Made by a program: the position numbers and the translations under genes | Shown: positions 9,640-55,726 of the stretch, piece by piece | Numbering within the stretch: position 1 is the first letter of the stretch | Layout of the letters: the number at the start of each line of letters is the position of its first letter | The notes under the pieces: generated by a model | The model's database searches: none | The model's input: the letters and a program-made list of their open reading frames with translations, nothing else | What the model was told of the DNA's origin: nothing | From: Cryomorphaceae bacterium | GTDB lineage: Bacteria; Bacteroidota; Bacteroidia; Flavobacteriales; UBA7430 | Assembly: GCA_019649675.1 (NCBI GenBank) | Contig: BOWN01000001.1 | Span: 209,979-273,978 of the forward strand | Length of the DNA stretch: 64,000 bases | Direction: 5' to 3'

Positions 9640-10191
9640 ATGAACAAGATATTTATATTCTTTTTTATCATTTCTACACAAAATTTATTTTCACAGACTC
9701 ATGCAATTGAAGAATTAGTTGTGGATTTATCAGGTAATGCATCAGTCTCTGATTTTAGTAATAACACCTATTATCATGCTTATGATTCTTGTGATGTAAG
9801 TTGGACAATTATAGATGACTCTATTCCCAATGGTTGGTTATTTTCTATCTGTTTTCCTATATGTTATTCACCCGGAATTACATCAGCAAGTCAAGTTTTT
9901 CCAAATAATTCTGAACAATATCTAAATTGCCACATTTATCCAAATAACATTCCTGGATCAGGAGTGATTTATATGGAAATAACGACAAATGGAGTTCAAA
10001 GAGATACTGTTGAGTGGAGAGCAACTGCAATTAATGACTTGACTCTAAATGAATATTCTGAAACAAGCAATAGAAAGATTATCAATATTTATAATCTTGA
10101 AGGAAGAAAACTTTCTAAGGCAATTACAAATCAAGTAATTTTAATTGAATTTGATGACGGATTGATTGAAAAAAGAATAATGCTTAATTGA
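9640..10191 (+). CDS. Hypothetical secreted protein with compact T9SS-type C-terminal domain
   Basis: Start MNKIFIFFFIISTQNLFSQ (ATG 9640 inside ORF 9604-10191). Tail RKIINIYNLEGRKLSKAITNQVILIEFDDGLIEKRIMLN resembles a Por-secretion tail. Confidence 0.6.
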   Translation: MNKIFIFFFIISTQNLFSQTHAIEELVVDLSGNASVSDFSNNTYYHAYDSCDVSWTIIDDSIPNGWLFSICFPICYSPGITSASQVFPNNSEQYLNCHIYPNNIPGSGVIYMEITTNGVQRDTVEWRATAINDLTLNEYSETSNRKIINIYNLEGRKLSKAITNQVILIEFDDGLIEKRIMLN

Positions 10192-41160: not shown

Positions 41161-41197
41161 TACATTTGCCTAGTTATAATTATTTAAAGTTATACAA
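41161..41197 (+). promoter_or_regulatory. Candidate promoter (-7 box TACATTTG) overlapped by palindromic operator TTGCCTAG-N16-TTATACAA upstream of proteorhodopsin
   Basis: TAnnTTTG at 41161-41168, half-sites at 41166-41173 and 41190-41197. The 17-mer aaagttatacaaaagt is identical to 55666-55682. Confidence 0.55.
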
Positions 41198-41231
41198 AAG
41201 TAATTATTTAATTAATCTAAACCCTTAAATT

Positions 41232-41953
41232 ATGTTACTAGCAAAAATTGCAGACATCGGGAGTAATCCTGTAGCATTTACCTTCTTTATTGGATGTATG
41301 GCTATGTTTGCCTCTTCGGTTTTCTTCTTTGTTGAAAGAGGTTCCGTAGACAAAAATGGAAACTATCATTAACAGTTTCTGCTTTAATTACAGGTATCGC
41401 AGCAGTTCATTACCTTTACATGAGAGATTATTTCATGGCTACTGGTGATAATCCAACTGCGTATCGTTATATTGATTGGATCTTGACAGTTCCTTTAATG
41501 TGTGTTGAATTTTATCTTTTAACTAGACTTGCAGGTGCAACCAAAACACTACTTTGGAAGCTTATTATTGCATCTACATGGATGTTAGTTGCTGGATATA
41601 TTGGCGAAGCATTTAGTGATGGTAGTACATCTCACTCAGTAACTTGGGGAGTATTATCTACTGTTGGTTACTTGTATGTATTATATACAGCATGGTTTGG
41701 AGAAGTTGCTCAATTAGCAGCTAACAGTAAATCTGAAGTTATTCAGAAAGGTGTAAAGGCTTTAGCTTGGTTTGTTCTTGTTGGCTGGGCTATTTACCCT
41801 ATAGGTTACATGTGTATGGATGGTGGTTGGTTAAACAACGCATTCGGTTGGACTTCTCAAAATGTTGATTTATTTTATAATATCGCAGATGCAATCAACA
41901 AAATTGGTTTTGGTCTAGTTGTATACAACATTGCTGTAACTGAATCAAAGTAA
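41232..41953 (+). CDS. Proteorhodopsin (green-type, Met at tuning position 105), one frameshift near 41355 (intact piece 41420-41953)
   Basis: FFFVERGSVDK(K)WKLSLTVSALITGIAAVHYLYMR; RYIDWILTVPLMCVEFYLL (D97, T101, M105, E108 in GPR numbering); Schiff-base Lys in YNIADAINKIGFG. The break is an A5 run where A6 restores DKKWK. Confidence 0.95.
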
Positions 41954-41976
41954 TTATATAATAGTTAAGTTAATTC

Positions 41977-42009
41977 AAAAAGCAGGGTTTCAATACCCTG
42001 CTTTTTTTT
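41977..42009 (+). terminator. Rho-independent terminator between proteorhodopsin and blh
   Basis: AGCAGGGT-ttcaat-ACCCTGCT followed by T8. It ends 5 nt before the blh ATG. Confidence 0.8.
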
Positions 42010-42014
42010 AAACC

Positions 42015-42920
42015 ATGACAATATTTTTATACATATTTATTGTATTCGCTTTTATAATTTCTAATTTATTTCAATTGTTCAGCTCAATTTCAATTGAGAA
42101 TCAAATTATTATTTCCACATTCTTTATTATGTTGGTTGGGATACCTCACGGTTCGCTTGACCACTTATTGCTTCCATCTAAAGATTTTAAATCAAAATTA
42201 AGATTTTATACATTTTATTTGGGCTTGATTATAGCTAATTTATTAGTTTGGACTTTTAGTCATATTTCAGGATTAATATTATTTTTTATAATTTCTTCTT
42301 ACCATTTTGGGGAGTCTCAATTATTTAAATTCAACATCAAAAATAAAATAATCACCCACTTTATTTACTTGTGTTGGGGTGCCAGTGTCATATTCTCATT
42401 TTTGTTCTATAACATTGATGAATTAGAACTTTTATCTAATTCTTATGAAGATACGAGGAATCTTATTTCAAATATTAATTTAAATTTATTTTCATATCTG
42501 TTTTTGTTAAGTAACGTAATTACTTTAATTATGTTCACTTTCTTCATCTACAATAAAAAAGTAAAAGCTAACAAAGTTATTTCAGAAATCTTTTTCTTGT
42601 TTGTTATTCATCTTTCTTCTTTCTTATTTCCTCTTTTAATCTGCTTTACTTTATTTTTTATCATTCTACATTCTTTACCATCTCTTGTAAATCAGTATAA
42701 TCATTTTAAGAAACATAACATTGAATTTACACTTAAAGATTTTATTTACTTAATGGCTCCATATTCATTAGTAAGTATTTTATTTTTAATACTTATTTCT
42801 TTTTGTTCCTACGCAAATGTTATCAATTATTCAGTTCCACTAATTTCAATTATATTAATTTCTGTAATTACTCTTCCCCATAGTTTTATTATTTCAAAAT
42901 TTAATGAGTCTTTAACATAG
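42015..42920 (+). CDS. blh: Brp/Blh-family beta-carotene 15,15'-dioxygenase (retinal synthesis)
   Basis: Polytopic membrane protein with VGIPHGSLDH, SSYHFGESQ, ILHSLPS and TLPHSF His motifs. Immediately downstream of the rhodopsin gene. Confidence 0.85.
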   Translation: MTIFLYIFIVFAFIISNLFQLFSSISIENQIIISTFFIMLVGIPHGSLDHLLLPSKDFKSKLRFYTFYLGLIIANLLVWTFSHISGLILFFIISSYHFGESQLFKFNIKNKIITHFIYLCWGASVIFSFLFYNIDELELLSNSYEDTRNLISNINLNLFSYLFLLSNVITLIMFTFFIYNKKVKANKVISEIFFLFVIHLSSFLFPLLICFTLFFIILHSLPSLVNQYNHFKKHNIEFTLKDFIYLMAPYSLVSILFLILISFCSYANVINYSVPLISIILISVITLPHSFIISKFNESLT

Positions 42921-42953
42921 AAATTTTTGTATAAATAAATATAATCTGTAATT

Positions 42954-44058
42954 ATGCTAGAATTATTTGATAAGAAATTATTTCCATCCAAATATTCAGA
43001 TATACTAAATCGCATAAAGTCATTTAAACCAATTAAATATGGTGCAAGTCGGAATTATGTAAATGGCTCTGTGTCTTATTTATCTGCTTATATTTCCAGA
43101 GGTGTTATTTCAACAAAATTTATTCTTAAAACATTATTAGATAAAAATTATAATCCGGCGGATATTGAAAAATTTATTCAAGAACTTGCATGGAGAGATT
43201 ACTGGCAACAAATTTGGATTTCAAAGGGAAAACTCATCAATTCTGATTTAAAGAACAGTCAATTTCCTGTTTCTAATAGTTCTACACCAAAAGCAATAAT
43301 TGATGCTAATACCGGAATATCAGCTATAGATAAGTCAATTATAGGTCTTTATGAAACTGGTTATATGCACAATCATTTAAGAATGTATGTTGCATCTATA
43401 GTGTGTAATATTGCTCAAAGTCATTGGATAAATCCTGCGCGTTGGATGTATTATTATTTATTAGATGCTGATTGGGCTAGTAATTCGCTAAGTTGGCAGT
43501 GGGTTGCTGGATCAAATTCAAACAAAAAATATTTTGCTAATCAAGAGAATATTAATAAATACTGTTTTACTAATCAAAAAGGCACTTTTTTAGATGTAGA
43601 TTATCCAGAATTTCAAAAATTCGAAATTCCAGAAGTTCTAAAGCATTTATATTTCTTCAATTTAAAAACTCCTTTACCAAATTCTGATGATATTACTATT
43701 GAAAATTCACTTCCAACCTTATTGTATAACTTTTATAATATAGATCCAATATGGAAGAAAAATTTAAAAGCTAATAGAATTCTTCTTTTAGAACCATCTC
43801 ACTTCGAAACATATCCTGTCTGTAAAAGACTATTGATTTTATTATAGACTAGCAAAGGAAAATATTCCATCGATTCAAGTTTATGTTGGAGAATTTAAAG
43901 ATCTTATAAATAATTATTTTGTTAAAGAAGTATATTATAAAGAACATCCAACAAATAGACATTATCAGGGAGTAGAGGAATCAAGAGATTGGATGTTTGA
44001 GGTAAATGGGTATTATCCATCCTTTTTTCATTCTGGAAAAAATGTAAAAAGCAACTAA
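42954..44058 (+). CDS. Photolyase/cryptochrome-related protein that begins directly with the FAD-binding domain; one frameshift near 43840 (intact piece 42954-43847)
   Basis: YGASRNYVNGSVSYLSAYISRGVIS, ELAWRDYW, TGYMHNHLRMYVAS, LLDADWASNSLSWQWVAGS. There is no N-terminal alpha/beta domain. A ~130-aa C-terminal extension reads RILLLEPSHF...IQVYVGEFKDL...VYYKEHP. Confidence 0.75.
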
Positions 44059-44115
44059 ACTATTGAAGAATTTAATCAATAAATTGAATGTAATTTTCAG
44101 TTTTACAACAAAAAT

Positions 44116-44400
44116 TTGAAAATGAAAGAAATAAATGAGATAGATATGGATAGAATTATTGAGATGGCTTGGGAAGACAGAACTCCTTTTGAAGCTATAG
44201 AACTTCAATTCAAAATATCCGAAAAGGACATTATTAAACTAATGCGTACAAAACTTAAAAAATCAAGTTTCAAACTATGGCGTAAAAGAGTTCATAGCAG
44301 AATTAGTCATAAACACCTACACAAAAGAAATCCTGATATTACCAGGTTTAAGTGTACACGACAACGAATTATATCTAATAATAAAATTAGTAAAAGATAA
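44116..44400 (+). CDS. DUF2805 / TIGR03643-family small protein (photolyase-associated)
   Basis: RIIEMAWEDRTPFEAIELQFKISEKDIIKLMRTKLKKSSFKLWRKRV matches the family signature as I recall it. Confidence 0.75.
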   Translation: MKMKEINEIDMDRIIEMAWEDRTPFEAIELQFKISEKDIIKLMRTKLKKSSFKLWRKRVHSRISHKHLHKRNPDITRFKCTRQRIISNNKISKR

Positions 44401-44476
44401 GCAAAGTAAAGTAAATTAAATTGATATTGTAATCAAGTTAATTTATGGTATTAATTTTTGAGTGAGTCTATAATAA

Positions 44477-45721
44477 ATGAACCAAATAAATTTAGTTTTA
44501 CCTAACCAATTGTTTAAGAATTCCCCGCTATTTAACAATAATTTTCCTTGTTATTTAGTTGAAGAATATTTGTTTTTCAAACAATACCCTTTTCACAAGC
44601 AAAAAATTGCTTTTCATAGATCAACCATGAAAAAGTATGCTGATTTTTTAATTAAAGAAATGAATATTGATGTTCATTATATAGAGTCAATTGATTCATT
44701 ATCTGATATTAGATTTCTTCTTCCTAAACTAAAAAAAAATGGAGTTAAACACATTAACTACATAGATCCAGTTGATAGTTGGATTCAAAAAAGATTAAAT
44801 CATGTTTGTAATGATCAAAAGATTAGCTACAAAAAGTTTGCATCTCCTTTGTTTATAAATACTGAGTCTGACTTAAAAGATTTTTTCAGACGAGATAAAA
44901 AAAAATATCATCAAACTACATTTTATAAAGAACAAAGAAAAAAGTATTCAATATTAATAAATGCTGATGGAAAACCTACAGGAGGAAAATGGACATTTGA
45001 TATCGAAAACAGAAAGAAATATCCTCTAAAAAAAGTTCCACCCCAAGTCAAATTTCCAGATTCAGATGATTATTACGAAGAAGCTAAATTGTATGTAAAT
45101 AAATACTTTTCAGATCATTATGGCACACTTTCTAAAAATCCATTATACCCTACATGCTTTGAATCAACTAAGGATTGGTTACATCAGTTTTTTGAACATC
45201 GTTTTTTTGAATTTGGAGATTATGAAGATGCTATTTTAAAGGATAACTCTATATTGAATCACAGTGTATTGACACCCATGCTAAATGTAGGTCTAATTCA
45301 GCCTAAAGAAATAATTGATGAGTGTTTAAATTATGTGAAAATCAACAATATTCCAATCAATTCATCTGAAGGATTTATTCGTCAGATTTTAGGATGGAGA
45401 GAATTCATTCGAGGAATTTATATAATTAAAGGAGGTGAAGAGCGAACTAAAAACTATTGGAAATTCGATAAGAAAATTCCGCAATCATTTTATAACGGAT
45501 CAACCGGAATAGATCCGGTAGATTGTACCATAAAAAAAATTCTTAAAACAGGATATTGTAATCATATAGAAAGGCTCATGATCTTGGGTAATTTCATGCT
45601 TTTATGTGAGTTTGATCCCAACGAAGTATATAGATGGTTTATGGAGCTCTTCATTGATTCTTATGATTGGGTAATGGTTCCTAATGTATATGGTATGAGT
45701 CAGTTTCTGATGGTGGGTTAA
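44477..45721 (+). CDS. COG3046-type photolyase-related protein (PhrB/CryB, (6-4)-photolyase-like lineage), fragment 1 (gene span 44477-45960)
   Basis: INLVLPNQLF, GGKWTFDIENRKK, LTPMLNVGLI, IRQILGWREFIRGIY, CNHIERLMILGNF, DSYDWVMVPNVYGMSQF. One missing base restores (A)DGGLMASKPY. Confidence 0.85.
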   Translation: MNQINLVLPNQLFKNSPLFNNNFPCYLVEEYLFFKQYPFHKQKIAFHRSTMKKYADFLIKEMNIDVHYIESIDSLSDIRFLLPKLKKNGVKHINYIDPVDSWIQKRLNHVCNDQKISYKKFASPLFINTESDLKDFFRRDKKKYHQTTFYKEQRKKYSILINADGKPTGGKWTFDIENRKKYPLKKVPPQVKFPDSDDYYEEAKLYVNKYFSDHYGTLSKNPLYPTCFESTKDWLHQFFEHRFFEFGDYEDAILKDNSILNHSVLTPMLNVGLIQPKEIIDECLNYVKINNIPINSSEGFIRQILGWREFIRGIYIIKGGEERTKNYWKFDKKIPQSFYNGSTGIDPVDCTIKKILKTGYCNHIERLMILGNFMLLCEFDPNEVYRWFMELFIDSYDWVMVPNVYGMSQFLMVG

Positions 45722-45960
45722 TGGCATCAAAACCATACATCAGCTCCAGTAATTATATAATAAAAATGAGTAATTACGGAAAGGGAGATTGGCAGTCCAA
45801 ATGGGATGGGCTGTTTTGGCGATTTATGAACATACATCGTGACTTTTTTTTATCAAATCCTAGATTGGGAATGTTGATTCGTATTTTTGATAAAATGCCA
45901 TCAAATAAGAAGCAAAAACACATTGAAGAGGCAGAGGCTTTTCTTGATCAATTAAAATAA
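45721..45960 (+). CDS. COG3046-type photolyase-related protein, fragment 2 (C-terminus)
   Basis: MASKPYISSSNYIIKMSNYGKGDWQSKWDGLFWRFM continues the family's C-terminal block. Confidence 0.85.
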   Translation: MASKPYISSSNYIIKMSNYGKGDWQSKWDGLFWRFMNIHRDFFLSNPRLGMLIRIFDKMPSNKKQKHIEEAEAFLDQLK

Positions 45961-46039
45961 ACCACCAAATCATTTTCTCTAGTTAACTTATTTTTTTTTA
46001 ATAAAATTATCATTTGTTAAGAATATAGACAACAAAAAA

Positions 46040-46069
46040 AGGTCAAGCTACTTTATTATAACTTGACCT
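46040..46069 (-). terminator. Hairpin with T7 tail on the minus strand (A7 on plus)
   Basis: AGGTCAAG-N14-CTTGACCT, and the minus strand continues TTTTTTTG. It lies about 520 nt beyond the stop of the MerR/B12 regulator gene. Confidence 0.5.
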
Positions 46070-46586
46070 ATAAGGTTCCCCCGAACCATGAAAAAAAGTT
46101 TGTTGACTTATTACTTAACAAAATCTAACCTACTATAGGAAAGTTTTGTTTCCAAAATGCAATTGAACAAATGACTTTTTAAAGTCTTATTCTGATTTTA
46201 TCAGTAAAAAAGTCATCCCTGGTGATATAATTTTATTGAGTCAATAATCTGGTTAGCTATCACTTTTTTTACACATAACTTTAATATTTATCAAAAATAC
46301 CCATTTTGTATAATATATACAATTAAAAAGTTATACGAAATATTTACACTATTTTATCTTTATACATCAATTTTTGAGCTACCTAATTTGTGATTAGATT
46401 ATCTCTTACTTAAAATAGACATATATAACATGACATGTTATCCACAATCAAAATTGTATAGTTAAATGATAATTATTTTAATGAATTTGAGGTTTTGGAT
46501 AGTTTTTTTTTACTGAAAAATGAACAAGGTTGTAAACACCTGCAAAATATAATTTTTGTATTCTGTCTTAAGAAAATTAATGAAAA

Positions 46587-47480
46587 CTAACTAGATGAAT
46601 CGAGCAGCTTAATAAAAGAGTCTAAGTCATGGATTAGAGTTATACTAGGTTCTTTTTGTTTAGGGAATTTTATGCTTTTATTTGGAGTGACAACAAAAAT
46701 TTTTCCTTGAGGGAATATTTTACTAAGTTTTTGAAGGTGTTGTTCTGACATTTGCATTGAATAATTTGCAAGAAGGAAAAGTAGAATATTATCAATTTTA
46801 TGTTTTTCAGCTACACCAGTTAGAGAGTCAATTGGAAGATTATCACCTAAATATAGGACATTGAATTCTTTTAGAGATAGAATATATTTTGCAAAAAGAA
46901 GTCCAATTTCATGGAATTCATTTTCAGGAAGAAATAATAACCATTTTTCCTTGTCAGTGTTACTGACTGCTGTTCTATCAATTAAGGTATATAATTTTTG
47001 TTTGATTAATTCAGACAGAAAATGTTCTTGTGAGGGTGACATTTTATTTGTTAGCCATAGAAGTCCAACCCTTTTAAGTAATGGTAGAATTATTACCTTA
47101 TAAAAGACAATAAAATCAAATTCATTGAGAGCTTTGATAAATAGTCTATTAAATTTGTATTCATCAAAATTTATTGCTGATATTATAAAATTGTTCAGGT
47201 AGTAACTAACTTTAACATCTTTGTTATCCGATAATCCAATTCGTTCAACAGCTTGTTGAACGTCATCATCAGTCATTTTGCTAACCTTGGATATTTTGTG
47301 TCCATTTTCAAGTAATAACTTTGTATTAATTCCTCTTACTAGTAGGCTATCAGAGTAAACTCTAATATTAGTCTCTGTGCGACTTGGGACTAAATACGAG
47401 TACCTATTTTCCCATGTTCTTAGATTTAATTTTGGGATATTAGTTATTTTTGAAAATTGATCAATATTATAGCTTGTCAT
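46587..47480 (-). CDS. MerR-family HTH regulator fused to a B12-binding domain (CarH/LitR-like candidate light-responsive regulator)
   Basis: N-terminal YNIDQFSKITNIPKLNLRTWENRYSYLVPSRTETNIRVYS (MerR HTH). C-terminal LFLPENEFHEIGLLFAKYIL...VLYLGDNLP (.xHxxG cobalamin-binding loop). Confidence 0.8.
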   Translation of the reverse strand: MTSYNIDQFSKITNIPKLNLRTWENRYSYLVPSRTETNIRVYSDSLLVRGINTKLLLENGHKISKVSKMTDDDVQQAVERIGLSDNKDVKVSYYLNNFIISAINFDEYKFNRLFIKALNEFDFIVFYKVIILPLLKRVGLLWLTNKMSPSQEHFLSELIKQKLYTLIDRTAVSNTDKEKWLLFLPENEFHEIGLLFAKYILSLKEFNVLYLGDNLPIDSLTGVAEKHKIDNILLFLLANYSMQMSEQHLQKLSKIFPQGKIFVVTPNKSIKFPKQKEPSITLIHDLDSFIKLLDSSS

Positions 47481-47497
47481 ATAAAGTTGGGGGATTA

Positions 47498-47965
47498 TTA
47501 ATTAGAGTTAAATATTTGATCCATTTTGATTCTTCTATATTCAAATATAGATTCAAGTTGTTTTTTTATAAATAAAGTGTTTGCAATTCTTCCTATTAAG
47601 CCGAATGGAGGTTTATATGTAACGATATCAGTCATTTTAACTTTATTATCGCCCTCTGATTCAAATAAATGTTGATGATGCCAAAGTGAATATGGTCCAA
47701 TTCGTTGCTCATCAATAAAATATTTGTTTTCTAATACATGTGTTATTTCTGTAACCCAATTAAGTTTTATGTTTAAAATGGGAGCCACATTATATGAAAT
47801 AATCATTCCCGGATATATCTTATTTTTAATTTTAGAAGTGATATTAAATAACATATAATCTGGGGTGATTTTTTTTAAATTCTTGGGAGAGGATGCAAAT
47901 TCCCAAATAGATTTTAAATCTGTATTAAGATATTGAACTGAAGAAAATTGATAATGGCTTTTCAT
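47498..47965 (-). CDS. SRPBCC-family protein (COG4276-like)
   Basis: LKSIWEFASSPKNLKKITP ... FIDEQRIGPYSLWHHQHLFE ... TDIVTYKPPFG. Confidence 0.7.
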   Translation of the reverse strand: MKSHYQFSSVQYLNTDLKSIWEFASSPKNLKKITPDYMLFNITSKIKNKIYPGMIISYNVAPILNIKLNWVTEITHVLENKYFIDEQRIGPYSLWHHQHLFESEGDNKVKMTDIVTYKPPFGLIGRIANTLFIKKQLESIFEYRRIKMDQIFNSN

Positions 47966-47992
47966 ACTTATTTTAAGATCTCAATTTATTTG

Positions 47993-48685
47993 CTAAAGTA
48001 ATCTAGATTTTCCCCCATCAACTTTTATAATTTGACCGGTCATCCATGATGACTCAGTCAATATATATTGAGCAAGACTTGCAATATCATCAGGTTGGCC
48101 GATTCTCGGAATAGGATGAGTAGAAGCAATTCGCTCAACTTTATCTTTGGTATTGAGTAAATGCTCACTTAGTCGTGATTCAATAATTGAAGGAGCAATT
48201 ATATTAAATAGAATTTTAGGCGCATATTCTCTGGCTAGTGAAGTGAATAATCCTTCTAGCGCAGCTTTCGATGTTGCTGTTGAAGCATGAAAATTAAATC
48301 CACTTTGAGCACATACTGATGAAAAGCCTATAACAGATGATAAATTAGACTTCTTAAGGGGTTTCAATAGTAACTGCAGCGATTTAATGAAACCGACAAC
48401 ATTTACTTGAAATTCAAGTTCAAAATCATCTTGCTTAAGGCCTCTAAATGGTTTTAAATTAATTGTGCCAGGACAATAAACAAAACCATCGAGTTTTTCT
48501 GGTAACTCAAAATCAAAAGTATTGGAGTTTTGAATATCATAGAAACCAGTTACTAAATTTGGATGACTTATCATAATATTATTTTTACAATATGTTGCAA
48601 AAACTCGATGGCCACTATTTAAAAGTTTATTAGTTAAATCGAGCCCTATTCCACTGGAAGCTCCCAAAATCAGTACTTCTTTCAT
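47993..48685 (-). CDS. Short-chain dehydrogenase/reductase family protein with Thr at the catalytic-Tyr position
   Basis: ILGASSGIGLDL (TGxxxGxG-like), FSSVCAQSG, then TATSKAAL where classical SDRs have Y...K. Confidence 0.8.
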   Translation of the reverse strand: MKEVLILGASSGIGLDLTNKLLNSGHRVFATYCKNNIMISHPNLVTGFYDIQNSNTFDFELPEKLDGFVYCPGTINLKPFRGLKQDDFELEFQVNVVGFIKSLQLLLKPLKKSNLSSVIGFSSVCAQSGFNFHASTATSKAALEGLFTSLAREYAPKILFNIIAPSIIESRLSEHLLNTKDKVERIASTHPIPRIGQPDDIASLAQYILTESSWMTGQIIKVDGGKSRLL

Positions 48686-48722
48686 ATGAATAACTTTTTT
48701 AAGTAATTTCTATACAAAGTTA
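48686..48722 (-). promoter_or_regulatory. Candidate promoter (-7 box TAACTTTG) overlapped by TTGTATAG-N16-TTATTCAT, abutting the ATG of the SDR-SRPBCC-MerR/B12 operon
   Basis: The minus strand reads TAACTTTGTATAGaaattacttaaaaaagTTATTCAT-ATG. Left half 8/8 and right half 6/8 versus TTATACAA. Confidence 0.45.
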
Positions 48723-48767
48723 GTTTAAAATATTTAATAAAACGAATTAATTATTTGATTATCAGTC

Positions 48768-49298
48768 TTAATTGATAGCAACTTCAATAATTTGCAATTT
48801 AAAATCTGGCTCTTTATTTGAAACTATCATAAATGTTAGTTCAGTAATTAATTTTTTGTCAAAATTTTCTAAGGAAAGAGGGGTGCCTCTAAAAACAGGT
48901 TTAAATTCAGACAAATTCAATGTAATCTGTTGTTCTGAACCGTTAGTTTTGAAATCTTGAGCATAAGAATAATAATTAGAAAGGTTATCTTTAATACGAA
49001 TTTGATAAGTGTTCCCATCACCGATAACTTTCAAATTAATTTTTTCAAAACTATTTAATTGAATTCTTTCACGAGTTCTAATTGAAGCAAATCCTCCATT
49101 AAATTTTGATGATAATTTTCCAAAAAAAATTAATCTATTATTTTGGATTTTAAAGTCACCAATAGAAACTCCACCCATAACATTATCATTAACAATTTCC
49201 CATTGTTTTTGAGAAGCTTCTATTGTAATGGATTCATTTTGACCATTTATTTCATAATTATTCAAAAACACAATGAAAATAAAAAGTAAATTCTTCAT
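48768..49298 (-). CDS. CIA30 (complex I intermediate-associated protein 30)-domain secreted protein
   Basis: WEIVNDNVMGGVSIGDF ... GKLSSKFNGGFASIRT. Likely start MKNLLFIFIVF at 49298, overlapping the upstream stop (ATGA). The ORF track extends to 49340. Confidence 0.75.
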   Translation of the reverse strand: MKNLLFIFIVFLNNYEINGQNESITIEASQKQWEIVNDNVMGGVSIGDFKIQNNRLIFFGKLSSKFNGGFASIRTRERIQLNSFEKINLKVIGDGNTYQIRIKDNLSNYYSYAQDFKTNGSEQQITLNLSEFKPVFRGTPLSLENFDKKLITELTFMIVSNKEPDFKLQIIEVAIN

Positions 49299-50065
49299 AA
49301 TGAAGCGAATAAAATAAAGGAGATAATCGAAAATATACAATAACCAGCATGTAGTTTAATCGTGTCCCAATTCGCTGTTACAAGAGATCTATTATTATAA
49401 TTTTTAAATATATGAACTGTGATTTTACTCCCATAAACTAAAACAAATAAAAGAGGTAAAAATAAAATTGGATTTAGAGTAATAGCTGAATAAAAGGTAA
49501 TCAACGCTATTATAATTAAATTGAATAAATATATGTATCGGCTATTTTTTTTACCAAAAGTTACCACTAAATGATTTTTACCAGTTTTTAAATCTCCCTC
49601 ATAGTCAGGAAATTCATTTATGAGTAAAATATTTGTTGTAAGTAGTCCAATCGGCAAGCTTAATAAGAGTAAATCATTGAAGTAACTTGATACAAAAAAA
49701 TTACCATTAAAAATTGCAAAACTAGTACCTAAAACCATAAGTGGTCCAAATACAGTAAATATTGAAATTTCACCTAACCCGTTTCTTGCAACTAATCTAA
49801 TTGGTGGTGCTGTGTAAAAGTATCCTAAAAATAATGCTGATATTGTAATTATAACTATTGGAATAATATTATCAATATAAGCATTAAATAAAGTAATTGT
49901 TCCGAATAAAACTGCAGTAATAATTAGTAAAATAGCTGATGATTTAGTTTTAGCAATGGAAATTAAACCAAGTTCTATTGCCCTACTCCCTCCAGATACC
50001 TGTTGAAAATAATTATAGTTTCCTGAGTCAGTACCATCAATATTATCGAAATAATCATTGAACAT
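49295..50065 (-). CDS. UbiA-superfamily (MenA-like) prenyltransferase domain, C-terminal fragment of a PAS-UbiA fusion (gene span 49295-50586)
   Basis: NMFNDYFDNIDGTD and INEFPDYEGDLKTGKNHLVV Asp-rich motifs and about 8 TM helices. The frame is open upstream to ~50160. Confidence 0.8.
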   Translation of the reverse strand: MFNDYFDNIDGTDSGNYNYFQQVSGGSRAIELGLISIAKTKSSAILLIITAVLFGTITLFNAYIDNIIPIVIITISALFLGYFYTAPPIRLVARNGLGEISIFTVFGPLMVLGTSFAIFNGNFFVSSYFNDLLLLSLPIGLLTTNILLINEFPDYEGDLKTGKNHLVVTFGKKNSRYIYLFNLIIIALITFYSAITLNPILFLPLLFVLVYGSKITVHIFKNYNNRSLVTANWDTIKLHAGYCIFSIISFILFASL

Positions 50066-50163
50066 ATTTGTCGATAAGTGAGCAAATAAAACACCGACAA
50101 TACAAAGGAAAAAATTTATTAAAGAAAATGAATTTGCACTAATTGAGTAAAAATAAGAAGCGA

Positions 50164-50646
50164 CTAAAAAAAAATTGGCAATATCGAGGCTGATGTAAAC
50201 GGCATTCTAGTAATTGCAAGAAGTTTAATTAGCTTGGTAGTCATTGAAATAGGTACTTCAACACTTTCATCGATTACTTCAGTTACGCCACAATATCCGT
50301 TTTGCACTTTATTTTTATCTTTAGAATAGGTTGGCGTAATACTAATTTTAGCATTAATTTTTTTTCCTTCCTTGTTTATAAAAATAGTTTTTCCTGAGTA
50401 TTCTCCTTTTTTTGATGCAATATCTAGCCATGAGGCTACATTTTGAAGAACTATTTCACCTGGCGAGAATAGTGACACTCTTTGTTTTCCAATTAATTCG
50501 TGTTTTTGATATCCAAATATCTTTTCAGCACCGGTATTCATAGTAAGAATGATACCTTCCATATCACAAGTTATAATACTTTTCATTTTTGTATAGTTTT
50601 TATTACGAATAATTATACAAATATAAGCATTATAGATGTCTAGCAC
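50164..50646 (-). CDS. PAS domain plus first UbiA helix, N-terminal fragment of the PAS-UbiA fusion (likely start 50586)
   Basis: MKSIITCDMEGIILTMNTGAEKIFGYQKHELIGKQRVSLFSPGE...INAKISITP (PAS fold) runs without a stop into LLAITRMPFTSASILPIF. The break is an A9/T9 run at 50166-50174. Confidence 0.75.
   Translation of the reverse strand: MLDIYNAYICIIIRNKNYTKMKSIITCDMEGIILTMNTGAEKIFGYQKHELIGKQRVSLFSPGEIVLQNVASWLDIASKKGEYSGKTIFINKEGKKINAKISITPTYSKDKNKVQNGYCGVTEVIDESVEVPISMTTKLIKLLAITRMPFTSASILPIFF
50589..50625 (-). promoter_or_regulatory. Candidate promoter (-7 box TATATTTG) overlapped by TTGTATAA-N16-CTATACAA, 2 nt from the PAS-UbiA ATG
   Basis: The plus strand reads TTGTATAG (50589-50596), N16, TTATACAA (50613-50620), the same spacing as at 55646. 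Confidence 0.55.
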
Positions 50647-50797
50647 AAATATTATCGTAAAACCTATTTTGAGTGGTGAAATTAAAATTTTGAGATTTTA
50701 GAAAACAAAAAATCTATGATGAAAAAATATTGATCAAATATTCAAGAAATAAAGTAATTTTAAAGAAACATCAGAAATATAAATAGAATTGCTGTAA

Positions 50798-51083
50798 TTA
50801 TTTGTCACATGATGAAATCTTATCAATTAATTTAGCTAATTGGTAGTCTTTTTTAGTGATATTGTTTTGTAAGTCGTGGGTACATAAAGATAACTTGACC
50901 TTGATTATAACAATTATAAATTTCTGGATGGTGATTCACTTCATTACAAATTTTTTGAATTTCATTTAGAAATGAAATCGCCTCATTAAAATCACTAAAC
51001 TCAAAAGACTTAACTAATTTTCCATTGTCCTCTATCCACATTTTAAAATAATTTTCTGTAAAGTTCTGAAATAATTTTAACAA
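50798..51083 (-). CDS. Pterin-4a-carbinolamine dehydratase (PCD/DCoH), frameshifted near the C-terminus (intact piece 50853-51083)
   Basis: FEFSDFNEAISFLNEIQKICNEVNHHPEIYNCYN. The shifted frame gives LSLCTHDLQNNITKKDYQLAKLID. Confidence 0.8.
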
Positions 51084-51300
51084 TAAATAAGTGCATTTAA
51101 TGCGTACGAATTCAATTCCAGTGTGTATTTTCTTTTTAGTTTATTATATTATTTCTAAACACTATGAAACTGAATCATAAAATTTAATTAAATAAATTAA
51201 TTAAAGTTTGAAAGTTATTTTTGTATTTTACTAAAATATCACGTTTATATTTAAATCACTTACACTAAGATCTGACAATCAAAAAAGATATTTATAATTA

Positions 51301-52071
51301 ATGTCCAAATTACCTAAAGAACACAGATTTATTGACTTTTCAGATTATGGAAGACCGCTAGCTAGACTGATTGCAAATTCATTAAAGAATACCTCATTCA
51401 CACCTATCCACGTGACAATTAGTTTTATAATTTCCGGATTATTTGGTGTTTTTTTCATTTTAAAAGGATACTATTGGTATGCTGCATTTTTTTTAATTTT
51501 AAAATCTATATTGGATGCTGCAGACGGGGAATTAGCTAGGATAAAAAAACAACCTTCTTACACAGGTCGCTATTTTGATTCTATATCAGATATTATATTA
51601 AATGCTTTAATATTTATCTCTATATGGCTAGTTGTAAATACTAATGTTTGGATATTAGTATTTTCTTTTTTTGGATTGCAATTACAAGGAACACTTTACA
51701 ATTATTATTATACGATTTTAAGAAATAAACTAAATGGGGATAAAACAAGTCGAATTTTTGAAGATAAAGCTCCTATCGCTCTTGAAGGTGAAAAACAAAA
51801 TAATGTAAACACCTGTTTTTTTATTTATAAGTTCTTGTATGGCACTTTCGATAAAATTATTTACAAACTTGATAAAAATGCCCAGATAGACTGTAAAATT
51901 CCTAATTGGTTAATGACTTGTATATCAACATTTGGTTTGGGTTTTCAATTACTATTTATTTCAGCTATACTGGTAATTGGATTTATAGATTTTATACTCT
52001 ATTTTTTTTTAATTTATACTGTTTTTTGTCTTTATTTTTATAGGGATACGCAGAGGTTTTTTATTAGGTAA
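51301..52071 (+). CDS. CDP-alcohol phosphatidyltransferase family protein
   Basis: DAADGELARIKKQPSYTGRYFDSISDIILNA fits D-G-x2-A-R-x8-G-x3-D-x3-D. Multi-TM protein. Confidence 0.8.
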   Translation: MSKLPKEHRFIDFSDYGRPLARLIANSLKNTSFTPIHVTISFIISGLFGVFFILKGYYWYAAFFLILKSILDAADGELARIKKQPSYTGRYFDSISDIILNALIFISIWLVVNTNVWILVFSFFGLQLQGTLYNYYYTILRNKLNGDKTSRIFEDKAPIALEGEKQNNVNTCFFIYKFLYGTFDKIIYKLDKNAQIDCKIPNWLMTCISTFGLGFQLLFISAILVIGFIDFILYFFLIYTVFCLYFYRDTQRFFIR

Positions 52072-52326
52072 ATTCAAAATTATTTTGAAGTTTAAATAAG
52101 TATTAACAGGTTCTTCGGACTTGTATCTATATATATCTATGGAATAAAAAAACTTAATGTTTGACCAATTTTTATAACTATAAAGCGTTAAAAAAATAAT
52201 TTTCCATCAAAATTATTCTATTGTACAATAAATAAATTCAGTTATTATCTAAACTGTTTATTTACCGGATCAGATGTCATTGATGAAAACTTTAGTTAAT
52301 TAGAAAAGTATATCACAAAACGAATT

Positions 52327-53013
52327 TTATTCTGTAAAACTTGTAGAGAGTTTAATATAGTCAAGAAATTCTTGTTTTGTATTCTTATTTTTAAAAACAC
52401 CACCATATTCTGAGGTTACAGTAGAACTAGTCACATCTTTAATACCTCGCTGATTAACACATAAATGTTTTGCGTCAATAACACAAGCTACGTCATCTGT
52501 TTTGAGCACATCTTGGAGTTCTCTAACAATTTGAAGAGTTAATCTTTCTTGTACCTGTGGTCGATTAGCATAATATTGAACTATTCGATTCATTTTAGAT
52601 AAACCAATGACATTTCCATTAGATATATATCCAATATGTGCTTTACCGACAATTGGTAGCAAATGATGCTCACAAGTTGAGAAGAGAGTAATGTTTTTTT
52701 CAACTAATATTTCTCCATATTTGTACTTATTTTCAAATATTGAAGCATGGGGTTTATTTTTAGGATTCAATCCGCTAAATATTTCATTCACGTACATCTT
52801 GGCTACTCTTTTAGGAGTTCCTTTTAAGCTATCATCAGTCAAATCCATTCCCAAGGCAAATAAAATATTTGCCACGTTTTCCTCAATAATCTTTAATTTA
52901 TCTCCATCAGACATTTTAAAAGCATCTTTTCGTAATGGAGTTTCAGTAGACGAAGATAGATGATTATCACCTATTATATCCTCAATAGTTTTTACTTCTT
53001 TTTGCGATAACAT
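52327..53013 (-). CDS. folE: GTP cyclohydrolase I
   Basis: LFSTCEHHLLPIVGKAHIGY, MNRIVQYYANRPQVQERLT, HLCVNQRG. Confidence 0.95.
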   Translation of the reverse strand: MLSQKEVKTIEDIIGDNHLSSSTETPLRKDAFKMSDGDKLKIIEENVANILFALGMDLTDDSLKGTPKRVAKMYVNEIFSGLNPKNKPHASIFENKYKYGEILVEKNITLFSTCEHHLLPIVGKAHIGYISNGNVIGLSKMNRIVQYYANRPQVQERLTLQIVRELQDVLKTDDVACVIDAKHLCVNQRGIKDVTSSTVTSEYGGVFKNKNTKQEFLDYIKLSTSFTE

Positions 53014-53152
53014 TAGTATAATTTTTATTTTGGTTGCGTGTAAAATAATTTTAATTATCTCAGTTGAGATAACTTTTTATTTAGTGATAAACTAAAAATT
53101 CTATTTCTAACTTTTTGAAAGGTTATATTACTCAAATTTATAAGTTTAAATC

Positions 53153-53569
53153 TTACCCATAATATTCTACAAAATTATTTTCAGTTTCATGAAGTCTAAC
53201 AGAATGTAATTGCTTACCAAGCTTCTTAATATCATCATAAAGTTCATTGTAAATACCTATTACAATATTCTCAGCGCTAGTGATAACGTTCTTAAGAAAA
53301 TCAACTTCTAGGTTTAAGTTTTTATGATCCATTTTATCTGTTATTTTTGATTTTATTAAGTCACTTAAAACTTTCATATCAATGACATATCCGGTCTCAA
53401 CATCAACTGTTCCTTTGACAGTTACAAAGACCTCATAATTATGACCATGCCAATTTTTATTTGAACATTTTCCAAAAATAGACTCATTTTTATTATCATT
53501 CCATGAAGGATTAAATAGCCTATGTGCTGCGTTAAAACGCTCTCTTCTTATGACAAAAACTTCTTTCAT
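53153..53569 (-). CDS. 6-pyruvoyl-tetrahydropterin synthase / QueD-family protein
   Basis: FNAAHRL ... GKCSNKNWHGHNYEVFVTVKG ... LDHKNLN. Confidence 0.85.
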   Translation of the reverse strand: MKEVFVIRRERFNAAHRLFNPSWNDNKNESIFGKCSNKNWHGHNYEVFVTVKGTVDVETGYVIDMKVLSDLIKSKITDKMDHKNLNLEVDFLKNVITSAENIVIGIYNELYDDIKKLGKQLHSVRLHETENNFVEYYG

Positions 53570-53585
53570 CTGAATATCTTAAAAC

Positions 53586-53644
53586 AAATTGAATCATCAG
53601 TATATCAATTCCAAATATGAATCAATTTACTGATGATTCAATTT
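53586..53644 (-). terminator. 17-bp perfect-stem hairpin between the FAS1 gene and the PTPS gene
   Basis: AAATTGAATCATCAGTA (53586-53602) pairs with TACTGATGATTCAATTT (53628-53644). The minus strand continues GTTTTAAG. Confidence 0.6.
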
Positions 53645-53652
53645 TATTATTA

Positions 53653-54987
53653 TTAATTTTCAACACAATATCTTTTAACTACTTTGCCTGATGAGTAAAC
53701 ATCAAAAATAATTTGATGAAAAAGTACATTTGTTATCTTTCTTCCCATAATATCTATCGAATATAAGTAGTCATCTTGTGATGGTAATATATTTACATCA
53801 TAAATATTTAAATCACTAGGAACAAGAACTGCATCAATAACATGAACAACACCATTATCTGTTTCAATATCAGCAATACTTACATTAGCATTGTCTATTT
53901 GTACCATACCATCCATTATACTCACTGTTAGTTCAGTACCTGCCAAAGTTGGAACCATCATTCCATTGGATAAATCAGTAGAAAGTACATTACCTGCGTG
54001 AACATGATGAGTAAGTATAGTTGTTAAATCTCCTGTTGGGTCTTCTAATAACTGAGCAATTAATCCTTCAGGTAATAATGCAAATGCAGCATCTGTTGGA
54101 GCAAAAACAGTAAATGGTCCATCACCGCTCAATGTTTCAACTAATCCAGCTGCTACAACTGCTGCTTCTAATGTTGTGTGATTCTCTGAATTCACTACCA
54201 CATCTACAACTGTTGTTGGTTCTTCCTCTTCGGGTACAAGAACTGCATCAATAACATGAACAACACCATTATCTGTTTCAATATCAGCAATACTTACATT
54301 AGCATTGTCTATTTGTACCATACCATCCATTATACTCACTGTTAGTTCAGTACCTGCCAAAGTTGGAACCATCATTCCATTGGATAAATCAGTAGAAAGT
54401 ACATTACCTGCGTGTACATGATGAGTAAGTATAGTTGTTAAATCTCCTGTTGGGTCTTCTAATAACTGAGCAATTAATCCTTCAGGTAATAATGCAAATG
54501 CAGCATCTGTTGGAGCAAAAACAGTAAATGGTCCATCACCGCTCAATGTTTCAACTAATCCAGCTGCTACAACTGCTGCTTCTAATGTTGTGTGATTCTC
54601 TGAATTCACTACCACATCTACAACTGTTGTTGATTGACTAGGTTGTACAGTAATAGAACTAACCATTCCCAAAGCAGCATGGTTTCCAATTGAACAGTCG
54701 TAAGTAAATGAACCAGAGGTATTGAAAGTTATACATCCCAAATTACCACCAGAATTTGGAGACAAATATTGGTCAACTAAGTCTTGTGGATTCCCATAAC
54801 CTGCAAAATTTACATCATGATAACCATCTTCATTGAACCAACATACTTCATCTCCAACATAAATCGTTTCATTTACAGTTGAGAAGTAATAATTCCCGGC
54901 AATAACATTATGGGTTGTTTGGGCAATTGTAGAAAATGGGATAATCAAGATTATGGCAAACAAGTTTTTTGTAAATAAATTTTTCAT
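53653..54987 (-). CDS. Secreted cupredoxin-like domain + 2x fasciclin (FAS1) protein with compact T9SS-type tail
   Basis: YDCSIGNHAALGM (C-x4-H-x4-M), two FAS1 units (GPFTVFAPTDAAFALLP...VIDAVLVP), tail LYSIDIMGRKITNVLFHQIIFDVYSSGKVVKRY. Confidence 0.8.
   Translation of the reverse strand: MKNLFTKNLFAIILIIPFSTIAQTTHNVIAGNYYFSTVNETIYVGDEVCWFNEDGYHDVNFAGYGNPQDLVDQYLSPNSGGNLGCITFNTSGSFTYDCSIGNHAALGMVSSITVQPSQSTTVVDVVVNSENHTTLEAAVVAAGLVETLSGDGPFTVFAPTDAAFALLPEGLIAQLLEDPTGDLTTILTHHVHAGNVLSTDLSNGMMVPTLAGTELTVSIMDGMVQIDNANVSIADIETDNGVVHVIDAVLVPEEEEPTTVVDVVVNSENHTTLEAAVVAAGLVETLSGDGPFTVFAPTDAAFALLPEGLIAQLLEDPTGDLTTILTHHVHAGNVLSTDLSNGMMVPTLAGTELTVSIMDGMVQIDNANVSIADIETDNGVVHVIDAVLVPSDLNIYDVNILPSQDDYLYSIDIMGRKITNVLFHQIIFDVYSSGKVVKRYCVEN
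53815..54645 (-). repeat. Tandem 414-bp (138-aa) near-identical duplication encoding the two FAS1 domains
   Basis: acaagaactgcatcaataacatgaacaacacc occurs at 53822 and 54236 (period 414). I noticed only one or two differences (gcgtgaacatg versus gcgtgtacatg). Confidence 0.9.
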
Positions 54988-55011
54988 AGTTAAAATATTT
55001 GAAATTTAGAT

Positions 55012-55626
55012 TTAGTAATTAATATTGACTGAAATAGTGAAATCATCATAAATCATTTTATCACCAAGGTTTTTAAAAAATGATCCTGAACTATATTTTA
55101 TGTCAAACTTGGTTCTATCAATATTTATTTCAGCAGTTGCTACATTATTATTAAGTTCTGTTTCGAATTCTATTGTTTCAGTAACATCTTTAATAGTTAG
55201 ATTGGCAACAACGTTGTACTTGTTGTTATTTAATTTGGTACAATCAGTGATCTTCAGAGTTGATAATGGATAGTCCTTAACATTAAAAAAATCATCAGAG
55301 TTCAAATGCTCTTCAAGTTTATTTTTGTAAGGACCACTTAAATCTGTGCAATTTATTGTTAACATGTCAATGATAACTTCACCGCCAGTAAGTTCATCAT
55401 TATCAAACGTAAGATTTGCAGCTTTTATGTTGATTACTCCCTCGTGAAATCCAGTAACCTTTTCACCTTTCCATTTAACAGTACTACTTTCAGTATTTAC
55501 TAATACAACTTCATCATTAGCTAAATAAGTAGTTTTATTAAAACTGTTAAATGTAAAGTCTAGTGCCAATGAACTTAATGAAATCATAAGAATGGTTGAC
55601 AATAAATAGTAATTAATTTTTTTCAT
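55012..55626 (-). CDS. YceI-like (polyisoprenoid-binding) periplasmic protein
   Basis: ESSTVKWKGEKVTGFHEGVINIKAANLTFDNDELTGGEVIIDMLTINC ... LTIKDVT. Confidence 0.8.
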   Translation of the reverse strand: MKKINYYLLSTILMISLSSLALDFTFNSFNKTTYLANDEVVLVNTESSTVKWKGEKVTGFHEGVINIKAANLTFDNDELTGGEVIIDMLTINCTDLSGPYKNKLEEHLNSDDFFNVKDYPLSTLKITDCTKLNNNKYNVVANLTIKDVTETIEFETELNNNVATAEINIDRTKFDIKYSSGSFFKNLGDKMIYDDFTISVNINY

Positions 55627-55640
55627 AACAAATAAGTTTT

Positions 55641-55677
55641 TAATTTTGTATAGATTTTAAAAGGCAAAGTTATACAA
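55641..55677 (+). promoter_or_regulatory. Candidate promoter (-7 box TAATTTTG) overlapped by TTGTATAG-N16-TTATACAA in the yceI/azurin divergent region
   Basis: Half-sites at 55646-55653 and 55670-55677. An extra TTATACAA lies at 55693-55700. Confidence 0.55.
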
Positions 55678-55726
55678 AAGTTTTTTAAATAGTTATACAA
55701 ATTTTTAATTTTTAAACGAAAAAAAA

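Follow-up and report, generated by a model that had tools for sequence, protein, structure and literature searches.

CarH and class I LitR proteins, as known from Thermus thermophilus, Myxococcus xanthus and Bacillus megaterium, are adenosylcobalamin photoreceptor repressors. The operators of the characterized B12-type CarH proteins consist of three or four direct repeats in tandem, each an 11-bp unit of the form nnnnTnnACAn, and overlap the -35 region (PMC9304148). The class II LitR proteins PplR1 and PmlR2 of Pseudomonas bind the sequence T(G/A)TACA-N12-TGTA(C/T)A and control phrB, folE, and cryB (PMC9758184). In Dokdonia sp. MED134, light induces proteorhodopsin (PR), crtBI, a MerR regulator, photolyases, and cryptochromes (bioRxiv 10.1101/2023.12.25.573297), and joint induction of such genes by light is thus documented by experiment for a flavobacterium in culture. 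The literature searched on this light regulon describes neither a cis-element nor a regulator mechanism, and the mechanism of light regulation in Chryseobacterium was called unknown in 2020. Here we analyzed a stretch of 64,000 nucleotides from a Cryomorphaceae bacterium (contig BOWN01000001.1, positions 209,979 to 273,978), which is referred to as the window. It harbors a light island, in which the same gene functions as in Dokdonia sp. MED134 are predicted to be under one operator. This candidate operator is the 32-base palindrome TTGTATA-N18-TATACAA, which lies on the promoters of five transcription units including that of PR. In the literature searched, the subscription part of which was covered incompletely, there is no account of the palindrome, of a flavobacterial CarH or LitR operator, or of a link between PR and CarH.

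The palindrome and its specificity within the window

A preliminary description of this DNA had reported four sites with a spacer of exactly 16 nt, and direct reading agrees with it: two of the sites are exact, and the other two carry two mismatches each (Table 1; eight-base halves with N16 equal the core with N18). Directly 5' of the left half each of these sites has TAnnT, and in this way a TAnnTTTG -7 box shares its TTG with the half-site. This sharing, which had been reported for all four sites, holds for the window and for close relatives, but in distant relatives the placement of the -7 box varies. A 17-mer described as identical at 41186 and 55666 is actually a 16-mer, aaagttatacaaaagt.

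When up to two mismatches and spacers of 10-23 are allowed, the sole matches in the 64 kb are the four reported sites and a site at 46306 with N17. With up to three mismatches, 13 matches were found compared with 3.8 expected, and 0 of 100 shuffled sequences reached 13. A weight matrix was trained on the sites of distant relatives alone and then applied to the window. It gave the four sites the scores listed in Table 1, with the next best position at 8.7 bits, and in shuffled windows the maxima averaged 8.5 bits, with 13.9 as the 95th percentile. No matrix site above 10 bits lies outside of the island in the window. TAnnTTTG itself is present 128 times in the window and continues with TATA in four cases, all of them at the four sites, and therefore the motif is not a general promoter extension. 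A weak site that had been proposed at 51216-51252, before the gene of a CDP-alcohol phosphatidyltransferase, was not supported, as it falls outside the top 25 matrix scores. Similarly, TTGTATAG at 46454 reaches 3.9 bits and was rejected as a site.

Distant relatives and linkage to the regulator gene

Homologs of the regulator encoded in the island are found by the thousands in marine metagenomes. A scan of one genome per species led to 39 Flavobacteriales loci with regulators 41-52% identical, comprising 682 kb in total. The exact palindrome is present 47 times in these loci, and 73 times if one mismatch is allowed, whereas 15 permutations of the half-sites over the same 682 kb gave 0 exact matches and 0-2 matches with up to one mismatch. 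The N18 spacing was matched 108 times versus about 15 times for other spacings, and an apparent peak at N20 is caused by N18 sites read two bases earlier. Together with the counts in the window, this makes it practically certain that a real cis-element is present, one that is specific and has been conserved over large evolutionary distances.

The motif also follows the regulator gene. In 35 of the 38 testable loci, a site with at least 15 bits lies upstream of the regulator gene at a distance of no more than 320 nt. L001 and L002 have a site before an SDR gene about 2 kb upstream of the regulator on the same strand, which recalls the SDR-SRPBCC-regulator operon of the window, and L023 has a one-mismatch site of 13.6 bits, just under the score cut-off. 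SDR, SRPBCC, PTPS, fasciclin-cupredoxin, azurin, and crtI-like genes are the recurrent targets in the distant relatives. In seven loci the site lies between the regulator gene and a divergent NAD_binding_8/Amino_oxidase gene of the phytoene-desaturase type (about 440-495 aa), and a regulator beside a divergent crtI-like gene is the classic context of CarH. In the distant relatives the -7 box can overlap the right half (TATACATTTG) or follow the site at a distance of 5-15 nt, in other cases the site abuts the ATG, and often the palindrome is not fused to any -7 box. Many of these relatives have tandem full operators, 33-65 bp apart, in regions that flank the regulator gene or in other intergenic regions (Table 1), which hints at cooperative or two-promoter control.

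The PR footprint and the sites in close relatives

The upstream region of PR was compared among 80 metagenomic loci that encode a proteorhodopsin 76-99% identical to that of the window and that comprise 61 distinct upstream regions. The palindrome with up to two mismatches is present at the same distance from the PR gene in 36 of the 61, seven of which have it exactly, at a chance rate estimated to be about 0.01 per upstream region. In an alignment of the closest upstream regions the -7 box and both halves are conserved, and the 16-nt spacer as well as the DNA further upstream are free to vary. The predicted PR operator is thus a phylogenetic footprint in these related loci. Its right half overlaps a minus-strand TAnnTTTG (TACTTTTG) at 41195-41202, from which a divergent promoter aimed into the 600-bp gap towards 40630 is possible.

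Closely related loci (L123 to L127) have regulators with 85-96% identity, the same gene order and an unbroken synteny of light unit 1, and they contain strong sites at the yceI/azurin, SDR, and PR positions. The SDR operator is kept in L124, L125, and L127 including its degenerate right half. L123, L124, L125, and L127 have a perfect N16 site of 31-34 bits that is orthologous to the site at 46306, and therefore the latter, from which they differ by a single T in a T-run, is real. Thus, the N17 site, which had been listed among the weak ones, is a genuine fifth operator candidate, and its deviating spacer is due to the one extra T. The palindrome TTGTATAATATATACAA, which had been reported to overlap it at 46306-46322, is not conserved in relatives; its inner copy is not kept in L125 and L127, and it is considered to be incidental. 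The PAS-UbiA operator is present in the window and in L123 and L124, where two inserted genes part PAS-UbiA from folE, and is absent in L125 to L127, where PAS-UbiA directly follows folE. The operator was accordingly gained where the operon was split, which argues for selection on co-regulation. The third half-site next to the yceI/azurin operator is kept in the close relatives together with the entire spacer region, and for this reason its conservation is uninformative; it was not seen at the sites of distant relatives.

Table 1. Positions of predicted operators and of other features in the window, and of tandem operator pairs in related loci (positions given for the respective locus).
Feature	Position	Strand	Sequence or content	Score (bits)	Context
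Predicted PR operator	41166-41197	+	TTGCCTAG-N16-TTATACAA, 2 mismatches, degenerate left half	20.4	-7 box TACATTTG at 41161-41168; PR ATG at 41232, 35 nt 3' of the site
Predicted operator of the SDR-SRPBCC-regulator operon	48686-48717	-	TTGTATAG-N16-TTATTCAT, 2 mismatches	22.4	Right half TTATTCAT abuts the SDR ATG; -7 box TAACTTTG reaches 48722; predicted autoregulatory site of the regulator operon
Predicted operator of the PAS-UbiA/CIA30 unit	50589-50620	-	Exact palindrome	31.0	ATG at 50586, 2 nt away; -7 box TATATTTG reaches 50625
Predicted operator of the yceI/azurin divergent region	55646-55677	undirected	Exact palindrome	32.3	Putatively serves azurin, Zn-ribbon, and flavin reductase genes (plus strand); probably also yceI, fasciclin-cupredoxin, PTPS, and folE (minus strand)
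Predicted fifth operator	46306-46338	-	TCGTATAA-N17-TTATACAA on the minus strand		Precedes a small unit (about 270 nt) on the minus strand
Extra third half-site	55693-55700	+	TTATACAA		15 nt 3' of the yceI/azurin operator
Putative light unit 1	41232-45960	+	Proteorhodopsin, blh, FAD_binding_7 cryptochrome/photolyase, DUF2805 (TIGR03643), DPRP cryptochrome (Pfam)		
CarH-like regulator gene	46587-47480	-	MerR winged helix-turn-helix, four-helix bundle, Rossmann domain		Last gene of the SDR-SRPBCC-regulator operon
Intrinsic terminator	46069-46040	-	12-bp stem, then T-run		End of the small operator-controlled unit
Open reading frame formerly called SRPBCC	47498-47965				
CIA30-domain protein gene	49295-50065	-			Follows PAS-UbiA
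PAS-UbiA gene	50164-50586	-	PAS domain fused to UbiA-family prenyltransferase		
Cupredoxin-fasciclin protein gene	53653-54987	-			
Tandem operator pair	L001 8056/8089				
Tandem operator pair	L016 9827/9872				
Tandem operator pair	L023 14975/15017				
Tandem operator pair	L028 478/519				
Tandem operator pair	L031 9087/9128				
Tandem operator pair	L034 9883/9948				

The CarH-like regulator

In Pfam the product of the regulator gene matches MerR_1 (4.6e-10) and B12-binding_2 (8e-10). Its Wx9EH motif (W142-LTNKMSPSQ-E152H153) is invariant in an alignment of 16 homologs, and so are the ExHxxG motif (E188-F-H190-EI-G193), down to an identity of 46%, and the recognition helix LRTWENRY, which aligns with LRQWERRY of CarH from T. 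thermophilus (TtCarH). An intact Wx9EH together with a His-containing B12 motif separates CarH from the B12-independent CarA (PMC9304148). As Wx9EH and ExHxxG are both intact, the regulator is by this criterion classed as CarH and not as CarA. The solved structure closest by sequence is that of TtCarH (5C8D), although the identity to TtCarH is only about 21%. An AlphaFold 2 model of the regulator (pLDDT 89.4, pTM 0.85) was compared with the PDB using Foldseek, and the top 50 matches are all TtCarH, with 5c8d/5c8e at an E-value of 4e-15 over the full length. The cobalamin-binding domain (CBD) of the model superimposes on that of TtCarH with a template modeling (TM) score of about 0.78 (Foldseek). 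Binding of the cofactor by the regulator is predicted.

Operator geometry in comparison with known systems

Each half-site TATACA contains the TnnACA core of the CarH repeats, and the two halves are inverted. If the halves are framed as 11-bp CarH units (positions 1-11 and 22-32), their centers would be 21 bp apart, which corresponds to two helical turns and would place both on one face of the DNA. The central 10 bp between these units are not conserved, and the total of 32 bp is about the length of three 11-bp units. Within the spacer no conserved inner 11-bp repeats were found, the logo showing a weak T-run/A-run symmetry alone. A metagenome-assembled genome of Kapabacteria (L040) has TTGTATAGTTATTGTATAG upstream of a CarH-like gene whose product is 31% identical and has the same recognition helix. 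In this region (9870-9965) the half-site TTGTATAG is repeated once in tandem with a period of 11 bp, and TGTATA is found in additional copies, which is the classic direct-repeat layout of CarH. These tandem half-sites tie the half-site to this DNA-binding domain and indicate that the arrangement has changed between lineages.

With CarH and class I LitR the regulator shares the MerR winged helix-turn-helix, the four-helix bundle with Wx9EH and the Rossmann domain with ExHxxG, as well as the predicted fold (5C8D/5C8E), a recognition helix of the RxWExRY type and the TnnACA half-site. The systems are also alike in an operator that, here by prediction, overlaps the core promoter, as TAnnTTTG overlaps or adjoins all sites of the window and many sites of the relatives, in the crtI neighbor of some relatives, and in an operator before the regulator's own unit, from which autoregulation is predicted. 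They differ in the inverted pair instead of tandem repeats, in the SxT/V and GG residues that the island regulator lacks, in the promoters of the island, which are of the Bacteroidetes -33/-7 type, and in the regulon, at whose center are proteorhodopsin/blh, pterin synthesis, and cupredoxins and not only carotenoid genes. The similarity to class II LitR consists of two TGTAYA-type hexamers with a fixed spacer, of a regulon with folE, photolyase, and cryptochrome-like genes, and of repressor sites over the -35 region or between the start site and the ATG. However, the hexamers are 12 bp apart in class II LitR and 18 bp in the island, and they are self-palindromic there (TGTACA) but oriented and inverted here (TGTATA/TATACA). 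Moreover, class II LitR has no Rossmann B12 domain and depends on a LOV antirepressor, whereas the island protein has the full CarH-like domain set.

The preliminary description had assigned the palindrome to the MerR/B12 regulator of the island, including autoregulation. This assignment is strengthened here, since the motif tracks the regulator gene across the 39 loci and precedes its own unit, and it is also backed by the recurring targets, the PR footprint, the CarH-like motifs and fold, and the TnnACA half-site. On this comparative evidence, the role of the palindrome as operator for the CarH-like protein is well supported and probable.

Proposed mechanism and alternative explanations

Taking all observations together, the best explanation, and a likely one, is that the CarH-like MerR/B12 regulator gates the whole island by light via the palindrome. 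In this proposal the binding itself, the transcription starts, the direction as repressor and not activator, the cofactor, and the light response are predicted. In the dark, each of the two TnnACA half-sites would be occupied by one winged-helix domain of a cofactor-loaded oligomer, the two domains being oriented oppositely. In this genome the site covers the -7 box and would extend over the first approximately 25 transcribed bases (about -7 to +25), and RNA polymerase would be excluded. Light would photolyze the cofactor and thereby release the repressor, and five units would be induced together, i.e., PR-blh-cryptochromes, the small unit at 46.3 kb, SDR-SRPBCC-regulator as autoregulation, PAS-UbiA-CIA30, and the divergent yceI-fasciclin-PTPS-folE/azurin-flavin reductase genes. 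Dark repression that is relieved by light through adenosylcobalamin would be the most likely mechanism, and we regard it as moderately likely.

Several points weigh against this explanation. The classic B12 motif reads D/ExHx2G/P-x41-SxT/V-x22-27-GG. Its GG is present in no homolog, and at the SxT/V position the clade of the regulator has LLA and the distant homologs have S-V/I-S. The Pfam B12-binding match stays below threshold (20.3 versus 32.1 bits), and the best NCBIfam match, NF052513 (CarH), reaches 70 bits with an equivalog cut-off of 400, and the regulator is therefore a distant relative of CarH and no equivalog. The inverted-pair geometry is unlike the tandem direct repeats of every characterized B12-type CarH operator. 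Furthermore, the position of the site relative to the -7 box varies among relatives, which fits occlusion but does not prove a single mechanism. Finally, the left half of the PR operator in the window, TTGCCTA, is a weakened form of the conserved site, and repression of PR may therefore be leaky.

In one alternative, the palindrome is bound by the CarH-like protein, but B12 has no part in light sensing, and the signal could come from a partner photoreceptor or antirepressor, comparable to class II LitR with short LOV or to CarA with CarS. In favor of this alternative are the absence of SxT/V and GG, the low Pfam B12-binding score and the fact that LitR classes II-V function without B12 (PMC9758184). 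The regulon also encodes two cryptochrome/photolyase-like proteins and a PAS protein, and the cryptochromes are candidate partners. Nevertheless, such sensing is unlikely, as Wx9EH and the axial-ligand motif ExHxxG, which mark CarH versus CarA, are invariant in the 16 homologs and the CBD, as modeled, matches that of TtCarH; a LOV signature was not apparent in the PAS domain, for which the translation was read by eye with no dedicated test run. Another possibility is that the palindrome is real but bound by an unlinked transcription factor, the CarH-like gene being merely a member of the regulon. The inverted geometry could be taken in this sense, but the location of the site before the transcription unit of the regulator itself in practically every one of the 38 testable loci, the lack of a second regulator gene conserved in the island, the TnnACA in the half-site with a CarH-like recognition helix, and the same half-site upstream of the Kapabacteria homolog with the same helix make it quite improbable.

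Classical MerR activators use a dyad whose place within an overlong -35/-10 spacer of 19-20 bp is fixed. Since its N-terminal domain belongs to the MerR family, the regulator could in principle be such an activator that remodels the promoter and no repressor. Depending on the gene, however, the 32-bp site overlaps the -7 box by either half, sits upstream of it or reaches the start codon. All site positions seen are compatible with occlusion of RNA polymerase, and none fits the fixed in-spacer position of a MerR activator. As the characterized CarH/LitR proteins are also repressors (PMC9304148, PMC9758184), activation is very improbable. A generic extended -7 element of Bacteroidetes, or a chance likeness of AT-rich promoters, has next to no probability. 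The left half does share its TTG with TAnnTTTG at all sites of the window, but this explanation is refuted by the matrix scan, which found no site above 10 bits outside of the island, by the continuation with TATA at the sites alone among 128 TAnnTTTG, and by the permuted half-sites (0 versus 47 exact matches); furthermore, the palindrome of the relatives often has no fused -7 box.

Other features of the island

The gene assignments of the preliminary description largely agree with Pfam, which confirms PR, blh, two proteins of the cryptochrome/photolyase family, DUF2805, the regulator, SDR, CIA30, PAS fused to UbiA, CDP-alcohol phosphatidyltransferase, pterin-4a dehydratase, GTP cyclohydrolase I, PTPS, cupredoxin-fasciclin, YceI, an azurin-like cupredoxin, and flavin reductases. 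The open reading frame that had been called SRPBCC has no match in Pfam or NCBIfam. A further operator within light unit 1 was not found by the matrix scan. The predicted light regulon also includes a UbiA-family prenyltransferase with a fused PAS domain and, downstream of it, the CIA30-domain protein. In the cupredoxin-fasciclin protein a segment of about 130 aa (TTVVDVVVNSENHTT...VIDAVLVP) is present twice, with no amino-acid difference between the copies, and among relatives the number of fasciclin domains varies, with proteins of 301 to 845 aa.

Frameshifts break several genes of the island, namely PR at 41352-41356, PAS-UbiA at 50065-50164, DPRP at 45721, and FAD_binding_7 at 42954-43847. 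In relatives these genes are intact and encode proteins of 240, 429, 494, and 373 aa, respectively. In PR, the only case compared base by base, there is one A fewer in a run of six A than in L124. The frameshifts look like homopolymer sequencing errors rather than gene decay.

The small unit at 46.3 kb ends at a terminator that is conserved in L124, L125, and L127. In L125 (11086-11253) and L127 (11291-11458) this unit encodes a conserved protein of 55 aa, MGRKRKLT.NEIIESINNTAPKIIFYTDKISIRLKNI.SI.FWKDKFP..., which has no Pfam or NCBIfam match. In L124 and in the window (46040-46340, minus strand) an in-frame TAA and shifts disrupt this frame. The window, L124, L125, and L127 share a conserved block, CATGGTTCGGGGGAACC, that precedes the terminator, and a comparison of the gap of 45.9-46.65 kb with Rfam gave no match with an E-value of 1 or lower.

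Significance for marine Flavobacteriales and the CarH/LitR family

For the light induction of PR, the analysis names a candidate repressor and defines a conserved operator and a regulon, which makes the question directly testable. It would extend the CarH/LitR family in three ways, by a new operator geometry, by promoters of the Bacteroidetes type, and by phototrophy genes beyond photoprotection. We see an even chance that abundant marine Flavobacteriales gate PR phototrophy, the synthesis of retinal and pterins, and cupredoxins by a B12-dependent photoreceptor with a previously undescribed inverted two-turn operator. If this is true, inverted repeats could be recognized in addition to direct ones, by the CarH tetramer or by another oligomer, and the expression of PR in the surface ocean would depend on light and also on how much B12 is supplied, a vitamin that is scarce and traded. 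This suggests a link between the availability of B12 and photoheterotrophy in the ocean.

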